Below are positions 48,706-63,165 of a stretch of DNA of 64,000 nt, piece after piece. The DNA comes from Escherichia phage EP335. Each line of letters starts with the position of its first letter. The first letter of the stretch is position 1. Both the position numbers and the translations under genes were made by a program. The stretch lies in the sequence record MG748548; one strand, given 5' to 3'. Below the pieces are notes generated by a model. That model was not told where the DNA came from. It ran no database searches and saw only the letters and a list, made by a program, of their open reading frames with translations.

Positions 48706-49096
48706 ACCTACTCCTGTTGTTTACACTCACCAATAACCCACTGATAAGAAGTGGATTGACCTGAAAAGAAACACTGAATAAATCCAGACGTTCTCTGCGT
48801 TACCAGTGCTAGTGCACATATCACTACCGCTGCTGCTAGCAGTTTCATATCTAATTTAGACATATTTCCTCTCTTTGAATTTAAAAAAGGACTCTCCGAA
48901 AAGAGCCAAGCTTTAAATACAAAAAGATATTACCCAATATCTGTGGATAACCTGCTCTTAAAATATCTATCCGACGGATGTTCGAGGATTGTTCCTCTCC
49001 CTAGCATCGGCCCCATACGGGAAATATATTAAGATTAGGTTAGTTGAGTCAGAATGACTCACATAGCCCTCCGAAGGGAAGGCTATAAATGTCACT

Positions 49097-49339
49097 CTAT
49101 TTATCCCCACCAAAGGCGAGGTAGGCATCTCTGATTTCAGTAACCTGTGAATCAGGTTTGAATGCAGACAAATGTCCTGTGTTCAGGTTAACTGCGTTGG
49201 CAGGGATGATGCAACCCTCTACTTTAGTATCAGGGATTTTCATGTAGTAACTTGAAAAGTGCTCTGCTGAGAAAACTTCTCCAACAGTGATATCACTAAT
49301 CTTCGCTAGAACATCCTTAGCTGGTTGCCCTATTTTCAT
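49097..49339 (-). CDS. Small-paralog-family protein A
   Basis: Family motif ISDITVGEVF...YYMKI...AVNLNTG shared with ten other small genes. Confidence 0.55.
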   Translation of the reverse strand: MKIGQPAKDVLAKISDITVGEVFSAEHFSSYYMKIPDTKVEGCIIPANAVNLNTGHLSAFKPDSQVTEIRDAYLAFGGDK

Positions 49340-49572
49340 TACTCACCTTTCTTAGCACGGTCTTTGGCAGTTTTACCAGTGCGGATACGATGGGAAACGT
49401 TAACCAGAGTGCCACCTTCAATAATGGTAACGCTCTTGTTCTTGGCAATGTCAAACACAGACTTCTCTGTGCCACCCAAGCGAATCTGCTTAGGCTCGCT
49501 GAAGGTTTGAGTGGACTTGGATTGGATGTTGAACGGCTGACGGATTGCATCGATTGCGCTTACTTTACTCAT
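49339..49572 (-). CDS. Hypothetical basic protein
   Basis: Internal ATG at 49572 with AGGAG upstream; alternative-frame ORF 49317..49550 considered less likely. Confidence 0.4.
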   Translation of the reverse strand: MSKVSAIDAIRQPFNIQSKSTQTFSEPKQIRLGGTEKSVFDIAKNKSVTIIEGGTLVNVSHRIRTGKTAKDRAKKGE

Positions 49573-49805
49573 AGGGGAATAGCTCCTAAAAATCATGACT
49601 GCGCAGAGGGAATTCCCTACGCAAAAACGACGCTAAAAGAAGCGTCACAGTAGTTGAAAAGAGGTACAGAAACAGGGGTTATTTAGCTACCTTTTTCTGA
49701 CCGTTTACGAACCAGATAATTGAACCGTCAGGCTGTCGTTGACCGAAGCCTTTCATGGTTAGCATGTCTTCCGAAAACTCTTTAAAAGTAATCACTTACT
49801 TACCC

Positions 49806-50051
49806 TTACATTGGAGTTAATATAATCTCTGCTTTGGCATACTTAACACCGACTTCAAGATTGTCAGCAACAGGACGAGGTTTGCCTGTACCCAAATTAA
49901 CTGCTCTGCGATATCCTCCGGATACAGTCATCATCAAATAGATGGTGCTGCTGTCATCTTCTTTTAAAGTGAAGATATCAGCGGTTGACAGATCTTTAAC
50001 AAAGAGTTTCTTTTCTTCTTCGTGACGAACCTTGATATGTATTGTGCTCAT
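49806..50051 (-). CDS. Small-paralog-family protein B
   Basis: VKDLSTADIF...YLMMTV...AVNLGTG. Confidence 0.5.
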   Translation of the reverse strand: MSTIHIKVRHEEEKKLFVKDLSTADIFTLKEDDSSTIYLMMTVSGGYRRAVNLGTGKPRPVADNLEVGVKYAKAEIILTPM

Positions 50052-50053
50052 AC

Positions 50054-50305
50054 CTACTCCTGAACCACGGACATACGAATCATTTCTACCGGAGTGTCAC
50101 CCTTCATAACACCCAGCACGCCAGTCAGAAGGTTAACTGTAGTAATCCAGTCTTTTTCTACAGAGATTTTGCTGGATACATTGGCAACACGCATATGATA
50201 CTGAGGTGATGCTGAACCTCGCTGAATTACGAAAGGGTTTCCGGGGATGATAGTATCCAGTGGATAAGTGTTATCTTTAACCTTGGGGATAATTTTCATT
50301 AGCAA
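50054..50305 (-). CDS. Small-paralog-family protein C (divergent)
   Basis: PLDTIIPGNPF...YHMRV...TVNLLTG. Confidence 0.45.
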   Translation of the reverse strand: MLMKIIPKVKDNTYPLDTIIPGNPFVIQRGSASPQYHMRVANVSSKISVEKDWITTVNLLTGVLGVMKGDTPVEMIRMSVVQE

Positions 50306-50568
50306 CCACTCACTAAAAGTTCAGCTGATACAGGGACAACATGGCACGTAGAATCTGGTGCTGTTACCAATCCATCACACAGACGAAGGGCTAAGGTACG
50401 TCCACTTTTTACGGACACATTAGGAGTATTGTGAACAAAGCCTTTAACATAGAGGGTGTCGCTGTCTGGGTGCTTGAACACCGCTCCATTTTCTAAGGAC
50501 TCGAGTCGGACACGATCTGTTCTGTTGGTAATTTTCACATTAACCCTTAACAACCTTAGCTTCAACAT
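50299..50568 (-). CDS. Small-paralog-family protein D
   Basis: LESLENGAVF...LYVKG...NVSVKSG. Confidence 0.5.
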   Translation of the reverse strand: MLKLRLLRVNVKITNRTDRVRLESLENGAVFKHPDSDTLYVKGFVHNTPNVSVKSGRTLALRLCDGLVTAPDSTCHVVPVSAELLVSGC

Positions 50569-50785
50569 TGACAGGATAAACCTTCATGCCATCAACAGGG
50601 GCACTCAGTTCGCCATTTTCCAGTTTAACACACACAATACGACCGAGAGGTGGCTCAATCCAAGACGTCTTATCTGTTGTACATACCATGTGAATAGGTC
50701 CACATGACTCTTTTCTGAAGGTGTCTCCGCTTTTTAACTCGGACAGCTTTACAGTTTTAGTAGGACTAACATCATTAACTTTCAT
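50540..50785 (-). CDS. Small-paralog-family protein E
   Basis: Internal start MKVNDV...; LSELKSGDTF...IHMVCT...VKLENG. Confidence 0.5.
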   Translation of the reverse strand: MKVNDVSPTKTVKLSELKSGDTFRKESCGPIHMVCTTDKTSWIEPPLGRIVCVKLENGELSAPVDGMKVYPVNVEAKVVKG

Positions 50786-50786
50786 A

Positions 50787-51017
50787 TTATTTACCCTGAA
50801 TAATAAGTTTAGACTCGAACATCTCAACAGTATTGGATTGAGGGACTGGATAGAAAATTTCTTTGGAGTTCTGAACACCCATTGCAGAGTGGTCTCCTAT
50901 TTTCATCCAGAACTTAGGGGCTATGCTGTCACCAGTAAAACGGAAAACATCTCCATTCTCTAAGTCAGAGAAGGTCTTGGAGGGTTCTTTGCTTTTTGGT
51001 ACTTGCTCAAAGTTCAT
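50787..51017 (-). CDS. Small-paralog-family protein F
   Basis: FSDLENGDVF...FWMKI...GVQNSKE. Confidence 0.55.
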   Translation of the reverse strand: MNFEQVPKSKEPSKTFSDLENGDVFRFTGDSIAPKFWMKIGDHSAMGVQNSKEIFYPVPQSNTVEMFESKLIIQGK

Positions 51018-51025
51018 CTTGATTC

Positions 51026-51349
51026 CTATTTAAGTTTAAGGCTGATATTAAGGTGCATACACGCCCTGTTCTGTACAGCGGCATAACTTCTACCGAGCAT
51101 GTCTGCCATTCTCTGAATAGGCATGAATCCAGCATTACGAATAACAAACTGATCTTCTTCTTCCGTCCACTTGACACGTAGAGTAGCTCTGGAAATTTTG
51201 AATTTAGTACAAGCTGTGTTAACAGCATTCTCTGTAACATTCATAATCAAAGCTATCTCAGGGATAGAGTATTCTTTGATCAACCGTCTAAGATTCTCGA
51301 TTTGCATCGGAGTCCATATGGTTCTTCTGGCTTTCATCTCACCACCCAT
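51026..51349 (-). CDS. DNA-binding protein with two Myb/SANT-like helix-turn-helix repeats
   Basis: Two ~45-aa repeats each beginning W-T and containing a basic recognition-helix-like segment. Confidence 0.45.
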   Translation of the reverse strand: MGGEMKARRTIWTPMQIENLRRLIKEYSIPEIALIMNVTENAVNTACTKFKISRATLRVKWTEEEDQFVIRNAGFMPIQRMADMLGRSYAAVQNRACMHLNISLKLK

Positions 51350-51560
51350 GTCTACTTTTAACTAGGATGCCATCAATTATTAGATAGTGGGAATGGTTAA
51401 TCATATCCGAAGACAAATCTCCGTGAGAGCTATTCCATTTAAGGAAGTTCATATTTTCCCAATCGGTGTAGTGCTTCTTGGCCTCTTCCTCTACCTGACT
51501 AAGAGTTACCCTTCTGAAAGGATAAGGACTGTACTTGATAAGCATTTCACATTTTGTCAT
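51339..51560 (-). CDS. Hypothetical protein
   Basis: Internal ATG with GGAGGA RBS; the track start at 51641 lies in a hairpin. Confidence 0.4.
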   Translation of the reverse strand: MTKCEMLIKYSPYPFRRVTLSQVEEEAKKHYTDWENMNFLKWNSSHGDLSSDMINHSHYLIIDGILVKSRHGW

Positions 51561-51989
51561 ACATCCTCCAATTAAACATTTATGTAAGACTTGCTTAGAT
51601 AAAGATTCAATAAAATAGGGGGAGGGGACGAATCCTCCCATATCCTATTAATTAATTTTGCATGTAAGATCTAACAATCGGCTGCCTTTGTAGGATAAGC
51701 GTTATGCTTTTCCAGCACTAAACTCCCGCCCCCTTAGTGGGCTGGGTTATTAAAGGGTAACGCCCTTGTAGGCTAGTTACGTGAATGTTAGTTTGATAGG
51801 AGATCTGAAGTCCTATCTCAAAGGACTCTCGTAAGAATCCTTCACGATATTACTTATTCATTTTTCGTCGGCTATCTCTCCAAGCCAACCAAGTGTAGGT
51901 TTTCAACTCTTCAAAATCTTCTGGAGAGAATAGATATTCTTTGAAGGTGTCACCAAACCACTCTAAAAACTCTTTAGTCATAAATACCC

Positions 51990-52238
51990 CTACTCCTTTT
52001 TAGGGAGAATGAAACCCCACAGCCCTGCCCACAAGCAAAGGGATATAAACATCACAGCAACAATGGGCCATAGAAAAACCATAATTGCTATCTTTGATAG
52101 GTTTGGTTCGTTACCCCATCCTCTGAACTCGACACTACCTTTTACGTCAAGGATTTTTATCAGGGCTGAAGATAACACCATACCTATCAGATAAACGATT
52201 AACACACTAACAAGACTCATCGCAAGGTTGGTCTCCAC
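51990..52238 (-). CDS. Small membrane protein (two TM segments)
   Basis: Two hydrophobic helices; start uncertain. Confidence 0.4.
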   Translation of the reverse strand: METNLAMSLVSVLIVYLIGMVLSSALIKILDVKGSVEFRGWGNEPNLSKIAIMVFLWPIVAVMFISLCLWAGLWGFILPKKE

Positions 52239-52389
52239 ATGTTTTACAAATCACTGGCGAATAACTACAGGCAGGATATACTGACACACCATCCCACGTC
52301 TCACATCCACAGTCAGGGCATTCACCGTTGGATTCCATGTCATCATCGTCACACACTTCACCGCCACCATAACAGCTCATGTGAACTCC

Positions 52390-52611
52390 TTAGTAAACTA
52401 AACCTACAACCTTTGCATCAGGCTGAGGTACTACTTGTGCATTAGGGCGATAACCATCTACTGAACCATTCCAAATATTGATGCAGGTTATATACCCGTC
52501 ATTTACAGTATCTGTTTTAATCCAGAAATGTTTATCGTGCCCAAAAACATCCCCGTTAGAGAGGGAGGACAGTTCAACAGTTTTAAGGCACTGTTTAGAA
52601 TTCAGTTTCAT
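52390..52611 (-). CDS. Small-paralog-family protein G
   Basis: LSSLSNGDVF...FWIKT...CINIWNG. Confidence 0.55.
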   Translation of the reverse strand: MKLNSKQCLKTVELSSLSNGDVFGHDKHFWIKTDTVNDGYITCINIWNGSVDGYRPNAQVVPQPDAKVVGLVY

Positions 52612-52623
52612 GATAACCTCTGA

Positions 52624-52845
52624 TTAATAAGTGACACCAGTTAATGTAGCTTCAGGCATATGGACCACTTTAACTCCTGCTGCGAACCCATCCATATCAC
52701 CGTTGTGCAGGTTGACTGCTTTATAGTAACCGGACAAGAAACTAGAGGTCTTTACCCAAAAGCCATTATTCCATTTGAATACAGACCCACCTTTGAGAGT
52801 GGAAATCTCAACTGTAGTCTCACTGTTTGTTGCATCAATAATCAT
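52624..52845 (-). CDS. Small-paralog-family protein H
   Basis: ISTLKGGSVF...FWVKT...AVNLHNG; internal start assumed. Confidence 0.5.
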   Translation of the reverse strand: MIIDATNSETTVEISTLKGGSVFKWNNGFWVKTSSFLSGYYKAVNLHNGDMDGFAAGVKVVHMPEATLTGVTY

Positions 52846-53080
52846 AATCAGTGTTCCAATGTTCGTAGTTAATATGACTTCTAGGACGACCATACATAAT
52901 GAAGTGGGTCTTATTAATCCTTTCTTTCAAGGTATAATAAAGATCGCTATCGAAATTACCAATCTTTACTTGCCATCTAAGAGAGCGGGCATCCATTCGA
53001 AGCATTGATATCATCTGATTATGACTCTGACTACTCATTGCTTCCAGAAGCTTCTTCGTATTCCAATAATGAGTTGTCAT
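52835..53080 (-). CDS. Hypothetical protein
   Basis: 81-aa ORF. Confidence 0.4.
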   Translation of the reverse strand: MTTHYWNTKKLLEAMSSQSHNQMISMLRMDARSLRWQVKIGNFDSDLYYTLKERINKTHFIMYGRPRSHINYEHWNTDYDY

Positions 53081-53081
53081 A

Positions 53082-53369
53082 TTACCACTCCTTACCAGAT
53101 GTTGTTACAGAACCACTGCACCACTGTGCATTCGACAGTGTTTTAGTTTCTTCATCAACAGATGCACCATTAAGGCAAGAGATTCCATTATAGCGCATAT
53201 CAATCTCACCACTAGGAACCTTGTTCCCTGAATGCCAGCGAGATACGCACACACCTTCAACAGACACTGCACACCATCCATCAGGACGGCTCTGTACACA
53301 GCCTGTAAGGACCACACAAGCGATGAAGATACAGATTAAGGATATTACACCACCCCAACTCATAGGCAC
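53082..53369 (-). CDS. Cys-rich lipoprotein
   Basis: Signal peptide with lipobox VLTGC and five further Cys in the mature part. Confidence 0.5.
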   Translation of the reverse strand: MPMSWGGVISLICIFIACVVLTGCVQSRPDGWCAVSVEGVCVSRWHSGNKVPSGEIDMRYNGISCLNGASVDEETKTLSNAQWCSGSVTTSGKEW

Positions 53370-53503
53370 CTCCTAATTAAAGTGGTGGACTATCTGGAAT
53401 CGAACCAGAAGCTCACTAAGAAAGCAATTCCCACTGTTATAAAAGCACTTGCCTCAACAGGGATACACTAACTTTGGTGCCGTACCCATACTAGCCCTAA
53501 ATG

Positions 53504-53579
53504 TGGTGCGCCCTACAGGATTCGAACCTGTAACCAATAGCTTAGAAGGCTACTGCTCTATCCGTTGAGCTAAGAGCGC
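53504..53579 (-). tRNA. tRNA-Arg (anticodon UCU), CCA encoded
   Basis: Reverse complement folds as a canonical cloverleaf: acceptor GCGCTCT/AGGGCGC, D-arm GCTC-AACGGATA-GAGC, anticodon arm GTAGC-CTTCTAA-GCTAT, T-arm ACAGG-TTCGAAT-CCTGT, then A-CCA. Confidence 0.9.
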
Positions 53580-53938
53580 AGAATTATTTAAATCATGTCA
53601 CGCTTGGTAACATGACCACACACTTTACACTGCATAACATAGCGAAGACCTTTGTGCTTTGTCTCACCGTAATCGTCAGTAATCCTCAGTGTATATTTTT
53701 CAAGGATTACCCAATCATGCAGATGCACAAGACGTTTAAACCATTTGAACATAGTCAGGAACCTTTAACAGAAAAGGATATAGCTTCATTTAGAGAACGA
53801 AACCGTCCAACATACTGACCTGCGGCAGAAGTTACAACAAACCACTGACCTACAAAAGAGATTCCAGCAATCCGTCGGTTGTCATCATCAGCTACTCTCC
53901 AGTAGTCTTTATGAATTTGTTTTACTTTCACATCAACC

Positions 53939-54190
53939 TCAAGCACATGCAGGGAGTGTAACGATCTCAGGTTTACCTTCGAACTCTTCAAACAAACCCA
54001 AGAACGTCGGGCTATACGTACCAGTACAAACAAACTCATCAAAGAGTTCATTGTACGAAGGCTTAATCTTCCAAGCCCACACATAGCCCATCTTATCAAT
54101 CGCAATGTGACGAGTGTTCAGAGGAACAGCCATCATCACATCACCTACTGCAATAACTTTGGTTATCGGTGCAGCTTGGAAGTTTTTCAT
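53939..54190 (-). CDS. Hypothetical protein (possible distant member of the small-paralog family)
   Basis: 83-aa ORF; VIAVGDVMM...YVWAWKIK loosely resembles the family motif. Confidence 0.4.
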   Translation of the reverse strand: MKNFQAAPITKVIAVGDVMMAVPLNTRHIAIDKMGYVWAWKIKPSYNELFDEFVCTGTYSPTFLGLFEEFEGKPEIVTLPACA

Positions 54191-54362
54191 ACTTTACCTT
54201 TGATTCGCACGTTGTTGATGTAACAGGAAGGACAAGGACGAACAACTTCCCCGCCTTCTTTGATTATCTTAATCTCACTACGAGTGATATTCACACGAGC
54301 ACCACAACAAGGAGAATTAACGTAAGAGTAACCAGATTGGGTATGTTTGATGATTTGCTTGT

Positions 54363-54626
54363 TCATATTACACCTCTTTCGGAGATTTCAGCAACAAACC
54401 AGACTTGTGGAGTGTGTTGATAAACTTCATACGACTTGACTACGGATAAGCAGTATTCTAAGAAACCTTTCACAAGAATTGTTGTTTTCTCTACAGGGAT
54501 TTCTGAAATGTCAACACCAAAGATTTCCATAACAACCTCACCCTTTTGGATGATGCGAACATTCATATCAGTACCTCTTGTTAGTTTAAGTAAGAGTTGG
54601 CCCTTAATTAAAACAACAAAGGCCAC
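54363..54626 (-). CDS. Hypothetical protein
   Basis: 87-aa track ORF; start uncertain. Confidence 0.35.
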   Translation of the reverse strand: MAFVVLIKGQLLLKLTRGTDMNVRIIQKGEVVMEIFGVDISEIPVEKTTILVKGFLEYCLSVVKSYEVYQHTPQVWFVAEISERGVI

Positions 54627-54639
54627 CCGAAGGTAGCCT
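54605..54639 (-). terminator. Rho-independent terminator (AGGCUACC-UUCG-GGUGGCCU then U-run)
   Basis: 8-bp stem, UUCG tetraloop, then UUUGUUGUUUUAAUU on the - strand just downstream of the stop at 54647. Confidence 0.65.
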
Positions 54640-54646
54640 TATTTGA

Positions 54647-54868
54647 TCAGTTTTGCTTTAAGCCGAGCAGTCTGTTCTGTAAGAACTCATCCTCTGCATT
54701 GTACAGGAAAGCGAACAACAACTCTTTAGCCATATCTCGTGAGCAGTTAAGGCACTTAGAGATTTGAGTCAGTTGGAGATTTCGATCATCGTGTTCAACT
54801 ACAGCAATGCGAATGATCTCTCGCATACCGAACACATGAGTTGACTTAGCCGCCATAAGACCAATCAC
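54647..54868 (-). CDS. Hypothetical protein
   Basis: 73-aa ORF followed by a strong terminator. Confidence 0.45.
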   Translation of the reverse strand: MIGLMAAKSTHVFGMREIIRIAVVEHDDRNLQLTQISKCLNCSRDMAKELLFAFLYNAEDEFLQNRLLGLKQN

Positions 54869-55344
54869 CTTGACGTTTACGGATGTTACCAGTCAGACGC
54901 AGCATGGCAGACTCAATCTTCAGAGCACCATTTGCTACTGCATCCATACGCTCAGGACGGTTCATACGCTTGGTTGACTTCTTCATAACGTTCTCTCTTT
55001 GTTAGTGGAGGCATTATTGCCAGTTGATATAAGGGATAGCCCTAGTCAGGAGGCTAATTCTGACCGCGTACTCATTGCCGACCTTCTCTGCCTAAGAGTT
55101 CAGGTTCTAGAGCTATCTCTTATTCCAACTGGTGAAGACCTCCTACCCCTAGGAGATCTCCCAAATCCCAAACCAATACGTACCCCTACGTAGTGGAAAG
55201 TCTACCGAAATTGAACAGGTTTTAGTCTAACACCGGATGTTCGAGCAAGCTCTCCCTAGCGGTGCGGCATATGCCTGATTGATATATTTAATGAGGAACA
55301 CCCTCACATAGCCCTCTGATAAACACAAGGGCTATAAGTCGGTG

Positions 55345-55563
55345 TTACTTTTGGGATAAACACAGATCAGGACGTGGCATAACAGTGGTTGATAGACCGA
55401 AGACTTCAACAGAACCGCTGTTCAGATCGGCGGCCTTACACAAACCATCAGGAGTTTTATCTTCTAACATCAGCCAGAAACGTCTATCGTAAGAGAAAAC
55501 ATCACCACCTTTAACATCTTCTGCATTTGCATATTTAGGATAATCCACTACTTTAATTTCCAT
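55345..55563 (-). CDS. Small-paralog-family protein I
   Basis: AEDVKGGDVF...FWLML...AADLNSG. Confidence 0.55.
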   Translation of the reverse strand: MEIKVVDYPKYANAEDVKGGDVFSYDRRFWLMLEDKTPDGLCKAADLNSGSVEVFGLSTTVMPRPDLCLSQK

Positions 55564-55818
55564 CTACTTACCTTTATTAGTAACTACTGCATCAGGAATA
55601 AGGACTACAGGAATATCTGAAGCGAGCTTCATGACCTGATTGATGTTTAAATTGATCACCACACAACCCGCACTAGGCTTAACTTCGGCTACGTGTGGAG
55701 TGAAGAGTTGAACAACCATGTAATAACTTATACCGGTGTTTTTAACTTGGAACACATCGCCTAGTTTCAGATCACTCAACTTAAGTTCTGGATTCTTCCA
55801 CTCAAGATCAATCTTCAT
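55564..55818 (-). CDS. Small-paralog-family protein J
   Basis: LSDLKLGDVF...YYMVV...VINLNIN. Confidence 0.55.
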   Translation of the reverse strand: MKIDLEWKNPELKLSDLKLGDVFQVKNTGISYYMVVQLFTPHVAEVKPSAGCVVINLNINQVMKLASDIPVVLIPDAVVTNKGK

Positions 55819-56065
55819 CTTTAACCTCTATATTGGTTATGTGGAGATCATTGCGCACTTGGCAGATTTCATTTCTACTGATAGCGACAAGCACCCCTGA
55901 TACTACACTAACACAGTTTACGTGATAGTCAGTTGTTGAACCTGTTCTGATAAAAAGTTTATCTCGGAAAGAAAATAAAACCCCTGGCTTCATATTGCCC
56001 AAACGGAGTATCGTACCATCAGATTTAATATTAACCTTCACTGTTGATCTCCTGTTGCTTGGCAA
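55808..56065 (-). CDS. Small-paralog-family protein K (divergent)
   Basis: ILRLGNMKPGVLF...LFIRTG...VSVVSG. Confidence 0.45.
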   Translation of the reverse strand: MPSNRRSTVKVNIKSDGTILRLGNMKPGVLFSFRDKLFIRTGSTTDYHVNCVSVVSGVLVAISRNEICQVRNDLHITNIEVKDED

Positions 56066-56336
56066 TAGCTACTCGCAAGTCTTCATTAGCACGAGCAAGG
56101 CGTTTAACTTCATGATCAAGGCTGATAAGGCGCTTATTTCTATCTTCAACCTGTTCAACCAGATCAAAAAGCTCAACTCTCACCTTTTCTGTATACATCT
56201 CCTCTACTTTAACCAGACTGTTATAGCGACGTTCCCAGCTGGCTGCTTTATTGCGTAGCATAATAAAACCTAACACAGCAACAGTTAACAGCAATACAAG
56301 TAAGAATTTATATACTTCAATACTCATCTTATTCAC
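56031..56336 (-). CDS. Membrane-anchored coiled-coil protein
   Basis: N-terminal TM FLLVLLLTVAVLGFIM followed by a charged heptad region. Confidence 0.45.
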   Translation of the reverse strand: MNKMSIEVYKFLLVLLLTVAVLGFIMLRNKAASWERRYNSLVKVEEMYTEKVRVELFDLVEQVEDRNKRLISLDHEVKRLARANEDLRVAIAKQQEINSEG

Positions 56337-56912: not shown

Positions 56913-57301
56913 AAGTAGCTGGGCCGTTGTTATCAGAACTTACTACCCCCTATTCTATGGGTACAAAAAAGCCCCAGCCGTAGCCGGGGCAAACCTGAAA
57001 GCAATACATGACTATTGCAGTAAATGCACTCGTAAATGCGCTTACGGCAACGACAAAAGCCGCTCAAAGGCGGCTATGTGGAAGCTTCAAATGGGGAGAG
57101 GGCACGACGCTACAGAAAGAGCGTCATAGTACTAAAAAGAGAGGCTATTGGAGAGGTTACTTATTGCCTTCCTTAATGCCTTGTTTTCTTGTTTAACCAA
57201 TTCGTTTTCTTCTTGCAAGGATGCTACCAGATGGACCAGAACATCAACTACTGCATCACCTTGCCGCATCTCTCTGACTTTATTTAGAATCTCTGAATAA
57301 A

Positions 57302-58469: not shown

Positions 58470-58569
58470 CTTTGATTAGATTCTTTGATTAGCACACTGA
58501 ATCAATGCACTGATAAAAGAAAAGGCGCTACCCGTTAAGATAGCGCCTTATGTTGTTTATATTGTGGTG

Positions 58570-60391: not shown

Positions 60392-60420
60392 ATTATGAAT
60401 CATGTTGTTTTAGCTGTCAA
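60392..60420 (-). promoter_or_regulatory. Sigma-70-like promoter candidate (TTGACA-17 bp-CATAAT) directing leftward transcription
   Basis: Reverse complement of 60415-60420 is TTGACA and of 60392-60397 is CATAAT, with exactly 17 bp between. Confidence 0.4.
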
Positions 60421-61347
60421 CCGCTTTTTAATCTTTTTCGTCGTTCCCTTTATTGGGAGGAGATATCAATCAGCTATATTTGATTGAAGATTAAGCGGTA
60501 ATGCTTAACTTATGATTCATATTTTTAAAGAGCGGTTACTACACTTTCAGCTTAACACATCGTGTTAGCTTGTCAACCTCTTTTTTATCATCTTCTTTTA
60601 ATTCCGTTCCCTTATCTCGCGTGAATCTTTGCGAAAGGGCAAGACGATAAGTCTGATTTGTCTTTTAGGAATCTAGTGCGCTTTCAAGCATCGACCATTT
60701 GAAAGTATCGAACAAATGAGGCTTATTTTGTTGCTCATCGTCCGCCTGTTTCACGTATGAATCAGGAATCAATTCTAGCGGTCAACTAAGCGCCTTATAG
60801 TAATGACGTTACCGCCACCTGTAAGACAAATCATATTTTTAAAGAGCGTAGCACTTCGTTGTGCGTCTTACCATCGGTATTCCTACCGCTCCCCCGTTGA
60901 AGCCTTTTACCGTGATGCTAATCACCTATCAGGGAGTCTTGTTGCTTGTTGCTTACTGCTTACTACGGGATTCATATTAATATACAGGAAAATTATGTCA
61001 ATACCCTTTTTTCAAATTATTTTACATCTCATTGATTTATAAAGGTTTTTATTTTACTTCACTCTGGAACTAGCAACGATTTATAGGCTGGCAGTGTTAT
61101 AAAGTAACATAAAAAGTATCATAATCGTGACGTAATAGACCACGCGCGGGATAACATACGCAAAACAGGCTGTAAAGCAGTTTCTAACGTCCTGTAAGCC
61201 ATTCTAACGAGCTAAAAGGGGGCAAGGCATACAATCACCCTATAAATGAAAAAAGCCTCATAGAGAGGCTTATAGGAAGGATTTAAAGTATTAGATAGAT
61301 TATGACCATAGGCATGACTACGGCACAATACAGGAGAAAGATTAATC

Positions 61348-61725
61348 CTATGGATTTACACATTGACCGTTACCGGATGCCACTTCATTCATAGACTCAT
61401 CGAACAAGGTTAGGGATGAGCGTAACAGGTGATCAATCATGATTTGCTTGCCAGTGGTTTCATTTACCAGTTGAATAGTTTTATCGAATGATAATACCTG
61501 ATCGAAATCACCAACGTGTAAAATAATAACCTTCGGTGATTGTTTACCAGTATCATAATTTTCTATGAGATAGGTACATTGCAAGCCTTCGATAGTCTTA
61601 GGTGTGAATGTTGCAGCCTTAACACTACCCATAGACGATAGGAGAACACCCAGCAGGAGAACAACCAGAAAGAAGCCTACGAACACTTTTACCACAAATT
61701 TGATAATACCCATGATGATAATCAC
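61348..61725 (-). CDS. Membrane-anchored protein
   Basis: Strongly hydrophobic N-terminus FVVKVFVGFFLVVLLLGVLL followed by a soluble domain. Confidence 0.45.
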   Translation of the reverse strand: MIIIMGIIKFVVKVFVGFFLVVLLLGVLLSSMGSVKAATFTPKTIEGLQCTYLIENYDTGKQSPKVIILHVGDFDQVLSFDKTIQLVNETTGKQIMIDHLLRSSLTLFDESMNEVASGNGQCVNP

Positions 61726-61807
61726 CTATAGTTAGAGAATGTAAGAATAAAGCATATCAGCGACGAATAACGCCACTGTAGCAACGAACAAGCAACGCCA
61801 AAAATAA

Positions 61808-62089
61808 TCATGAATCATCGTTGCCATCCTCGCCAAAAAAGGATATACTGATTTGTTCCACTTCTTCCAGCGACAACAAAATCCCACGTTGGGCTAAATA
61901 CTTCCCAACAGTCAGATAGTCCTGCACTAAACAGACAACAGGAAAGCGGATAGTCTGTATCTCACCTTTAGAAAGAAAAGACAAATAACCAACGTCACTT
62001 GACTCATCAAAGGATAAAGTAACGCCACCGTAATTATGCGTATCAATTAACGCGATAGTTTCATTTCCCATAATGTTTCCAATCCTCAT
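61808..62089 (-). CDS. Hypothetical protein
   Basis: 93-aa ORF coupled to the upstream gene. Confidence 0.45.
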   Translation of the reverse strand: MRIGNIMGNETIALIDTHNYGGVTLSFDESSDVGYLSFLSKGEIQTIRFPVVCLVQDYLTVGKYLAQRGILLSLEEVEQISISFFGEDGNDDS

Positions 62090-62961
62090 TATTGTTTAGC
62101 ACTGATACAATCAGCCAGATTAAAATGAATGGTGTACATCGCATTATTTTCGCTATTGTAAACCGTGGTAGCGAGCATTGATTCATTCATCGGGCCATAG
62201 CTGACCAGATTAGTGACAGCTTTCGCATGGCTGTAACGTTGTACAGTACCAAATGTGACTAGTTCGGGATCATTATCAGTACGCTTTAATAACAGATCTT
62301 CATTGCCCTGATTATCTAGTGTTTTGGTACTAACGACCAGACCATCACGGGAAACATTACTAAATTTAACCTTTAAAACGACCTGATTGGTGTCACTATC
62401 CGCACCATTACAGACTAGCCATTGCTTAGGTGCAACCTTAACGAATAGATTAGCGGCATCACTAGCAACAGGAGCAGGACTAGCAATAGCGTTATCAGAG
62501 ATAGCACCAACGACAGCACTGACACCGATAGCTGCAACCAGTGCATAACTTGCAAGGTTGACAGACTTCATAATCTTACCTGCAATAGAAGGCTTGCTAT
62601 CTTTCTTCTTCATGTTCTGGATAGCTTCAACCATAGCAGACAAGCGGGATAATAATGCGTTAACATCACGGCAAGATTCAGGCCAATCGTTTTGAGTCCA
62701 ACTATCTAAGTTAGCCTGAATGTAACAGTTAATAGCGTCCTGCATATCGGTAAAACCATTCTCTTTGAATGACTCACTATCTTCACACTGTAAAGCGTTC
62801 GCAGCAGAATCGATGATAAGACAAGCCAGAATAATAGAGTTTTTAAAGCTGGTACGGGCTTGCTGGTTATCCATCCATTGAGTAGGCACACCAACGGAAA
62901 GACCTAACGGGGAAAGTTTTTCATTTGCTTGATTCAGATGTTTGATTGCTAACTTTGACAT
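62089..62961 (-). CDS. Hypothetical protein (most upstream gene of the leftward block in this window)
   Basis: 290-aa ORF directly left of the non-coding region 62962-63830. Confidence 0.5.
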   Translation of the reverse strand: MSKLAIKHLNQANEKLSPLGLSVGVPTQWMDNQQARTSFKNSIILACLIIDSAANALQCEDSESFKENGFTDMQDAINCYIQANLDSWTQNDWPESCRDVNALLSRLSAMVEAIQNMKKKDSKPSIAGKIMKSVNLASYALVAAIGVSAVVGAISDNAIASPAPVASDAANLFVKVAPKQWLVCNGADSDTNQVVLKVKFSNVSRDGLVVSTKTLDNQGNEDLLLKRTDNDPELVTFGTVQRYSHAKAVTNLVSYGPMNESMLATTVYNSENNAMYTIHFNLADCISAKQ

Positions 62962-63165
62962 TTTCGCTAATCCTTTCGGTTGATGTGAACTACAAACTAC
63001 ACTCGCAACTATATATTAAAGGAAAAAACTGTCAACTATTTATTTTCTAACTTTCTTATAACTCACTGAATCATAAAGGAATTTAATTTACTAAACTTTC
63101 TCATTCAGGGCATAGCTTACTACTCTTATTGTTACTTTATAACATAACGCCAGACCAACGGGGAG

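Follow-up and report, generated by a model that had tools for sequence, protein, structure and literature searches.

Eleven small open reading frames (ORFs) on the minus strand of a 64,000-nucleotide stretch of Escherichia phage EP335 (sequence record MG748548), which was analysed at its full length and is hereafter called the window, constitute a single family of homologous proteins. Within this window, a Kuravirus (phiEco32-like) genome, the eleven genes belong to the early cluster. The family brings together at least nine PHROGs of unknown function, is predicted to fold as a small SH3-like beta-barrel and, as judged from profile comparisons, is homologous to the C-terminal domain of SprT-like proteases of Bacteroidota. 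An original prediction, made from the sequence alone, had recognised the family and proposed that it is shaped by diversifying selection; the family is confirmed, and diversifying selection at the level of whole genes is not supported.

The homology among the eleven ORFs was established by profile searches against 648 six-frame ORFs of the window, 637 of which are non-members. In a leave-one-out design, the profile built from ten members ranked the omitted eleventh as the top non-training match in all eleven cases, with expectation values (E) of 4e-17 to 0.044 for the omitted members and never better than 0.17 for the best non-member. With the profile of all eleven, the members scored E 1e-21 to 1e-29, all other ORFs staying at 0.6 or above. 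A twelfth member was sought in the window with this narrow profile and with a broad, 136-sequence profile, and none was found, the next ORF reaching E 0.38 with the broad one. PHROG scans, run for ten members one by one, returned the own PHROG of each at 1e-15 to 1e-36, and most members cross-matched the PHROGs of others. A MAFFT alignment displayed the pattern MKI, [FL]-x-x-L-x-x-G-[DE]-V-F, [YW]-[MI]-K, N-A-V-N-L-x-x-G and V, broadly the motif that had been predicted, in which the sole invariant column is the Phe of G-[DE]-V-F, a Gly being present in 10 of the 11 members.

The members, labelled m01 to m11 in the order of their window coordinates, are listed below with their lengths in amino acids (aa), the E of the omitted member in the leave-one-out searches, their PHROG matches, the gene-wide ratio of nonsynonymous to synonymous substitutions (dN/dS, or omega), the confidence of the AlphaFold model as predicted local distance difference test (pLDDT), and the occurrence of their orthogroups among ten sampled Kuraviruses, the window included.

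m01, 49097..49339, minus strand: singleton, 80 aa; leave-one-out E 3.6e-10; phrog_12612 at 2.9e-28; accessory orthogroup, 2/10 (window and KBNP1711)
m02, 49806..50051, minus strand: 81 aa; phrog_12612 at 3.7e-36; leave-one-out E 0.0042; omega 0.18; universal orthogroup, 10/10
m03, 50054..50299 (ORF 50054-50305), minus strand: 81 aa; phrog_7431 at 8.6e-31; omega 0.22; universal orthogroup
m04, 50299..50568, minus strand: leave-one-out E 2.5e-5; omega 0.22; orthogroup in 5/10
m05, 50540..50785, minus strand: 81 aa; leave-one-out E 9e-10; phrog_7832 at 7e-17; omega 0.14; orthogroup in 7/10
m06, 50787..51017, minus strand: 76 aa; phrog_10911 at 4e-32 and phrog_6570 at 3e-4; leave-one-out E 1.9e-7; orthogroup in 3/10 (window, phiEco32 and ES17)
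m07, 52390..52611, minus strand: 73 aa, the most consensus-like member; leave-one-out E 4e-17; AlphaFold pLDDT 83, five strands; universal orthogroup, duplicated in the window, Bas89 and KBNP1711
m08, 52624..52845, minus strand: 73 aa, tandem partner of m07, which it matches by phmmer at E 1e-16; omega 0.19
m09, 55345..55563, minus strand: 72 aa; phrog_6570 at 7.5e-32; omega 0.22; orthogroup in 9/10
m10, 55564..55818, minus strand: 84 aa, with a long strand 2-3 loop; phrog_9955 at 2e-35, with cross-matches to other PHROGs of the family; omega 0.18; universal orthogroup
m11, 55808..56041 (ORF to 56065), minus strand: 77 aa; AlphaFold pLDDT 87; orthogroup in 9/10

The three members with the weakest sequence support are backed independently: m02 has phrog_12612 in common with m01, m03 matches phrog_7431 as m01 also does, and the AlphaFold model of m11 retrieves orthologues of m07. 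The original prediction had placed all eleven genes correctly, but the three arrays that it described are in fact one singleton and clusters of five, two and three genes. Their starts are preceded by Shine-Dalgarno sequences, and the genes are tightly packed, abutting or overlapping by 1-12 nucleotides (nt), as expected of one operon. The start of m03 is the ATG at 50299, giving MKIIPK, with which its orthologue P0069 also begins; m04 probably starts at the GTG at 50538 (79 aa), while the ATG at 50568 would give 89 aa; m08 starts at an internal ATG of the ORF 52624..52893; and m11 starts at the GTG at 56041, seven bases past an AGGAGA Shine-Dalgarno sequence, and not at the TTG at 56065, its orthologues beginning MKVNIK. 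One of these orthologues, A0A7L4XW47 of Escherichia phage vB_EcoP_EcoN5 in the BFVD database (77 aa, 75% identity to m11), carries the UniProt label 'Endolysin', almost certainly a mis-annotation, since it is a 77-aa member of the barrel family.

Beyond the window, when 1.84 billion cluster representatives were searched exhaustively with HMMER, 3,296 proteins matched at E <= 1e-3. This count is an upper bound because three long multi-repeat matches (P0121, P0126 and P0171) proved to be repeat-inflated artefacts, with no more than 10 bits per repeat. Among the top 150 matches nearly all are single-domain proteins of 67-90 aa starting with MKI, and true two-domain fusions are also present. The family is spread over at least nine PHROGs (phrog_6570, 7832, 7431, 8365, 16423, 12612, 9955, 10911 and 34455), which the catalogue lists separately and annotates as 'unknown function', and which are here united as one family; phrog_6570 alone is matched by 129 of 136 diverse members. 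No family model was found in Pfam, NCBIfam or PADLOC for the window members or for 136 diverse relatives, all matches being below threshold and none occurring in more than two of the 136. Named members include N4 gp21 (E 3.5e-17), PaP3 ORF.65 (7e-9), LUZ24 gp7 (2e-10), and gp112, gp131 and gp133 of phage 7-11, and BFVD adds others from phages of Klebsiella, Proteus, Yersinia, Erwinia, Vibrio and Serratia. LUZ24 gp7, PaP3 ORF.65 and N4 gp21 are uncharacterised early-region proteins whose BFVD models match the fold described below with template modelling (TM) scores of 0.65-0.75; the LUZ24 gp7 gene lies downstream of annotated sigma70 promoters. Metagenomic members stand in long co-directional runs of small genes that adjoin phage replication genes. 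The domain is thus widespread in the early regions of virulent phages.

PaP3 gp70.1, an early protein known to inhibit the host, was considered as a member and rejected. Two other searches were of little use: a degenerate DNA pattern for GDVF...NAVNL..G gave five genome matches, all false by hidden Markov model and none in viral contigs, and says nothing on distribution, and tblastn with one distant member against phage records was too insensitive to inform. Among the metagenomic contigs, two with a single member (L003 2835-3179 and L008 1967-2308) carry a PemK-family toxin and a DUF8033 protein in the same small-gene run, and in an 87-kb phage-like contig with one member (L026 18399-19661) the small-gene run is closed by a reverse transcriptase (RVT_1).

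Two of the eleven members, m07 and m11, were modelled directly. The AlphaFold2 model of m07, made from a 76-sequence alignment, reaches pLDDT 83 with five strands assigned by DSSP, and that of m11, among the members with the least sequence support, reaches pLDDT 87 with the same strand order and a short additional N-terminal strand. Searched against BFVD, the m11 model retrieves the m07 orthologue K4ICI6 (TM 0.74-0.78), models of other Kuravirus paralogues match at TM 0.64-0.85, and both models bring up one common set of phage proteins, uncharacterised and 70-85 aa long. The predicted fold is a generic SH3-like small beta-barrel of five to six antiparallel strands, in line with the single shared fold and the small beta-barrel anticipated in the original prediction. 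Placement in these monomer models is poor (pLDDT 52-71) for two conserved segments, MKI at the N-terminus and A-x-L-x-I at the C-terminus. Foldseek, run against the Protein Data Bank (PDB), gave its best matches to domain I of EF-P and eIF5A, to FeoA and to SH3 domains, each of them weak (E >= 0.03, query-normalised TM about 0.5), and sequence searches of the PDB with two profiles gave chance matches only, such as antibodies, with no sequence-related solved structure. Homology to EF-P, which the Foldseek matches and inspection by eye had suggested, was rejected because hhalign against domain I of E. coli EF-P gave a probability of only 0.2%; moreover, the alignment contains no PGKG motif, and no EFP_N or KOW match of Pfam was found among 136 members. 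What the family has in common with EF-P/eIF5A domain I (a KOW/SH3-like barrel), FeoA and SH3 domains is the small beta-barrel topology, a resemblance at fold level only.

A relative in cells was found through P0123, a chromosomal SprT-like protein of Bacteroidota in which five tandem repeats of the domain follow the protease domain; ordinary SprT-like proteins of Bacteroidota (about 200 aa) bear one such domain at the C-terminus. Aligned by hhalign with thirteen SprT C-terminal domains, the phage profile gave a probability of 97.3% (E 2.1e-11, 54 columns), and with the five P0123 repeats alone 97.0% (E 1.2e-10). By these comparisons the phage domain is homologous to the C-terminal domain of the SprT-like proteases, in which core motifs of the phage family (L-x-x-G-S-x-F, F-K-K and Y-x-C-x-x-L-x-x-G-x-x-Y-L-F-x-x-x-x-x-V) are also present; a word-index search with a short profile of the SprT repeat found nothing. 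The contexts differ, as in the SprT proteins the domain is fused to an N-terminal metalloprotease, which is all that PF10263 covers, and stands in a chromosomal housekeeping context, whereas each window member stands alone as a protein of 72-89 aa in which Pfam detects no domain. The SprT version also has a conserved basic loop, KKGEKRRTRY, exactly at the most variable loop of the phage proteins, in which no such basic loop is present, the phage family being mostly acidic. As far as we have checked, the SprT link is new to the literature.

Among Kuraviruses the family is consistently numerous. With the broad profile run over the early regions of the ten genomes, we counted 11 copies in the window, 9 each in phiEco32, ES17, KBNP1711, SU10 and CHD5UKE1, 8 each in Paul, WFI101126 and Bas91, and 7 in Bas89; in all ten genomes they occupy one common region of about 7 kb and follow a conserved order. 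In the distant relative 7-11, three to four copies are dispersed, and, in the stretches examined, N4, PaP3 and LUZ24 have one each, compared with 11 in the window, and metagenomic contigs one to three. The copy number had been called unusual in the original prediction, and the contrast between 7-11 copies in Kuraviruses and 1-4 in the stretches examined of other phages and contigs bears this out; a high copy number thus characterises the Kuravirus lineage, and it is old and has been kept. A recent or lineage-private expansion does not fit these data, as the paralogues are old, syntenic and each conserved: they fall into at least 14 orthogroups, four of them universal, two present in nine of the ten genomes, and eight patchy. 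Inside orthogroups every column is 0.6-1.0 identical, and between them only the core agrees (M1, G20, F23, L47, G50 and V61), so that each paralogue has its own conserved surface. Indels concentrate in the strand 2-3 loop, whose length is paralogue-specific. Charge is not uniform, with isoelectric points (pI) of 4.7 to 9.3 in the window; distant members have a median pI of 5.1, 76% being net negative, and K32 is the only widely conserved basic residue. Such a pattern may have arisen by old tandem duplications and dispersal that raised the Kuravirus count to 7-11, each paralogue now being a separate syntenic orthologous lineage, with four retained in every sampled genome and the others presumably gained and lost.

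Selection was assessed as gene-wide dN/dS (NG86) for nine orthogroups, eight of them with a copy in the window. Orthologues of the family in the ten Kuraviruses gave 0.14-0.22, and 0.05 for a gp109-type lineage absent from the window, as compared with 0.04-0.42 for non-family neighbours. Spurious overlapping-frame ORFs conserved across Kuraviruses (e.g., 51007-51240, minus strand), evidently non-coding, served as internal control and gave 1.3-2.5; the family genes are therefore real coding genes under purifying selection, with ratios like those of the genes around them.

The placement in the early cluster, also part of the original prediction, agrees with what has been published on relatives. 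Megablast of window positions 49000-56100 matched 135 phage records, which almost without exception belong to phiEco32-like coliphages (Kuravirus and relatives, Gordonclarkvirinae); in the closest, Escherichia phage KarlSchell_Bas89, identity is 92% but only 65% of the region is covered, and the region is therefore mosaic even between close relatives. In phiEco32-like phages the early class comprises the right-hand part of the genome, which is read leftwards from sigma70 promoters at its far end (PMC8948821, PMC9965538, PMC4281155). A consensus scan of the window found three near-consensus matches in a position that agrees with the early promoters published for phiEco32 and SU10 (PMC8948821, PMC4281155), and they are likely to be early promoters of the family genes. 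These and the terminator-like hairpins of the region are as follows.

63035-63008, minus strand: near-consensus sigma70-type promoter match
61001-60974, minus strand: near-consensus sigma70-type promoter match
60420-60392, minus strand: near-consensus sigma70-type promoter match
60392..63035, minus strand: predicted early-promoter zone that holds the three matches (agreement at 10-11 of 12 hexamer positions) and lies upstream of the family genes
58549-58522, 56990-56971, 54640-54619 and 49648-49599: terminator-like hairpins

Proteomics of SU10 virion preparations lists no family member, which is uninformative for early proteins.

Several neighbouring features were observed in passing. A tRNA-Arg gene (anticodon TCT) at 53504-53579 (minus strand) lies between the second and third family clusters, in a spot that in the related phages Paul and Bas91 also houses HNH or homing endonuclease genes. 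A phage lipoprotein gene (PF24052, E 4e-36) at 53082-53369 (minus strand) is found two genes upstream of m08; in N4 (L019 8256-9379), the lone member gp21 directly follows the lipoprotein gene gp20 and the membrane protein gene gp19, which may be coincidence. Directly upstream of the five-gene cluster, a gene at 51026-51349 (minus strand) encodes a 107-aa protein with a sigma70 region-4-like helix-turn-helix and a weak Myb-like repeat, annotated in relatives as 'D5-like transcriptional regulator'. In addition, a block of amidoligase, glutamine amidotransferase, COOH-NH2 ligase and gamma-glutamyl cyclotransferase genes adjoins the early region in phiEco32-like phages (40-48 kb in the window), in 7-11 (L029) and in PaP3 (L018) and LUZ24, pointing to a common genome architecture despite different families.

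As for function, we give about even chances to the reading that the paralogues are non-enzymatic, non-toxic early binding modules, each with a different partner. This role would be the most likely one because the genes are placed early, the family shows no apparent catalytic signature and LUZ24 gp7 is non-toxic, and because a conserved core carries lineage-specific surfaces, indels concentrate in the strand 2-3 loop and the domain serves as an appendage of a protease. LUZ24 gp7 is the only member with an experimental datum: when 13 early proteins were expressed in P. aeruginosa, four inhibited growth and gp7 did not, nor did it inhibit biofilm (PMC4635203), which argues against a host-shutoff toxin and is compatible with an anti-defence role. 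Under this reading, the early promoters would drive production of the copies shortly after infection, and the variable loops of each copy would recognise a different macromolecule of the host or the phage.

Several points weigh against it. The binding role is drawn by analogy with other SH3-like barrels, and no partner, ligand or phenotype is recorded for any member. The four to six slow-evolving core paralogues suit a housekeeping function of the phage no less well than they suit a host interaction. The hairpins at 56971-56990 and 58522-58549 (minus strand), both strong and intrinsic-terminator-like, separate the family genes from the putative early promoters at 60.4-63.0 kb, and would call for either read-through, antitermination or extra promoters; because of them, early timing in EP335 is taken from its relatives. 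As to novelty, no catalogue or accessible paper was found that unites the nine PHROGs or describes the fold or the Kuravirus expansion, a survey that did not cover the primary phiEco32 papers, where an earlier mention of the paralogy is possible.

A special case of the binding-module reading is that proposed in the original prediction, in which the paralogues are anti-defence or host-takeover effectors in an arms race, each neutralising a different host target under diversifying selection. We consider it unlikely in this form, its selection component being weakened by gene-wide omega values of 0.05-0.22, no higher than those of neighbouring genes. The early location and the paralogue-specific surfaces agree with such effectors, as does the non-toxic LUZ24 member, and the patchy occurrence of eight of 14 orthogroups among close relatives is typical of accessory counter-defence genes; on the other hand, four to six paralogues are universal and syntenic, and the members resemble no known family of Pfam, NCBIfam or PADLOC. 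The Pfam scan, which included several anti-defence families, found nothing among the members, no dedicated anti-defence profile library being searched. Similarly doubtful is a broader proposal, that the family is a phage 'adaptor scaffold' of the same stock as the SprT targeting domain, with the 7-11 Kuravirus paralogues each neutralising or redirecting a different host factor, such as immune sensors.

It is rather improbable that the proteins are small nucleic-acid-binding barrels like KOW, Sm or cold-shock domains, acting on RNA or DNA of phage or host, for instance by chaperoning RNA or by regulating translation or transcription. The best matches among solved structures (EF-P/eIF5A domain I, FeoA and SH3) would point that way, but they are weak and hhalign gave 0.2% against EF-P domain I. 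Four window members are basic (m03, m04, m05 and m11; pI 8.5-9.3), whereas most members of the family are acidic, as are m01 and m09 in the window. The domain fused to SprT bears its basic loop, and eukaryotic relatives of SprT-like proteases need a DNA-binding subdomain; that loop, however, is absent from the phage members, which leaves K32 as the only basic residue widely conserved.

Still less probable is a single hetero-oligomeric assembly in which the paralogues stand side by side as in Sm/Hfq rings, the apparent expansion being the parts of one machine. The fixed core of four to six paralogues in the same order in all Kuraviruses would suit such a machine, as would the natural two-domain fusions, the five-repeat protein and the terminal segments that the monomer models place poorly. 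Against this, the domain is often single-copy outside Kuravirus (N4, LUZ24, PaP3, L003, L008 and L026, in the stretches examined), accessory paralogues vary freely between genomes, and Pfam detects no Sm/LSM signature. Finally, chance similarity or non-coding ORFs, to which several weak pairwise E-values (0.1-2) and the single invariant column might have pointed, are already refuted by the leave-one-out ranking, the PHROG cross-matches, purifying selection and the identical predicted folds.

No part of phage genomes is understood less well than the ORFans of the early region. Taken together, these results join at least nine anonymous PHROG families, along with proteins of N4, LUZ24/PaP3, phiEco32 and 7-11, in a single domain family that has a defined fold and a relative in cells. 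The family is genuine and clearly bounded, and belongs to the dark matter of phages; it does not represent a new kind of system, and large lytic phages are already known to carry small early proteins in multi-copy families. With eleven diverged copies in a coliphage group that can be cultivated and is represented in the BASEL collection, it offers a tractable test set. If the partners are distinct, the copies would represent a natural library of small proteins that bind host factors; if not, it would still have to be explained why four to six paralogues are strictly retained. Should the adaptor-scaffold proposal prove true, the thousands of variants in virulent phages would amount to a large and so far unused source of counter-defence or host-control proteins.

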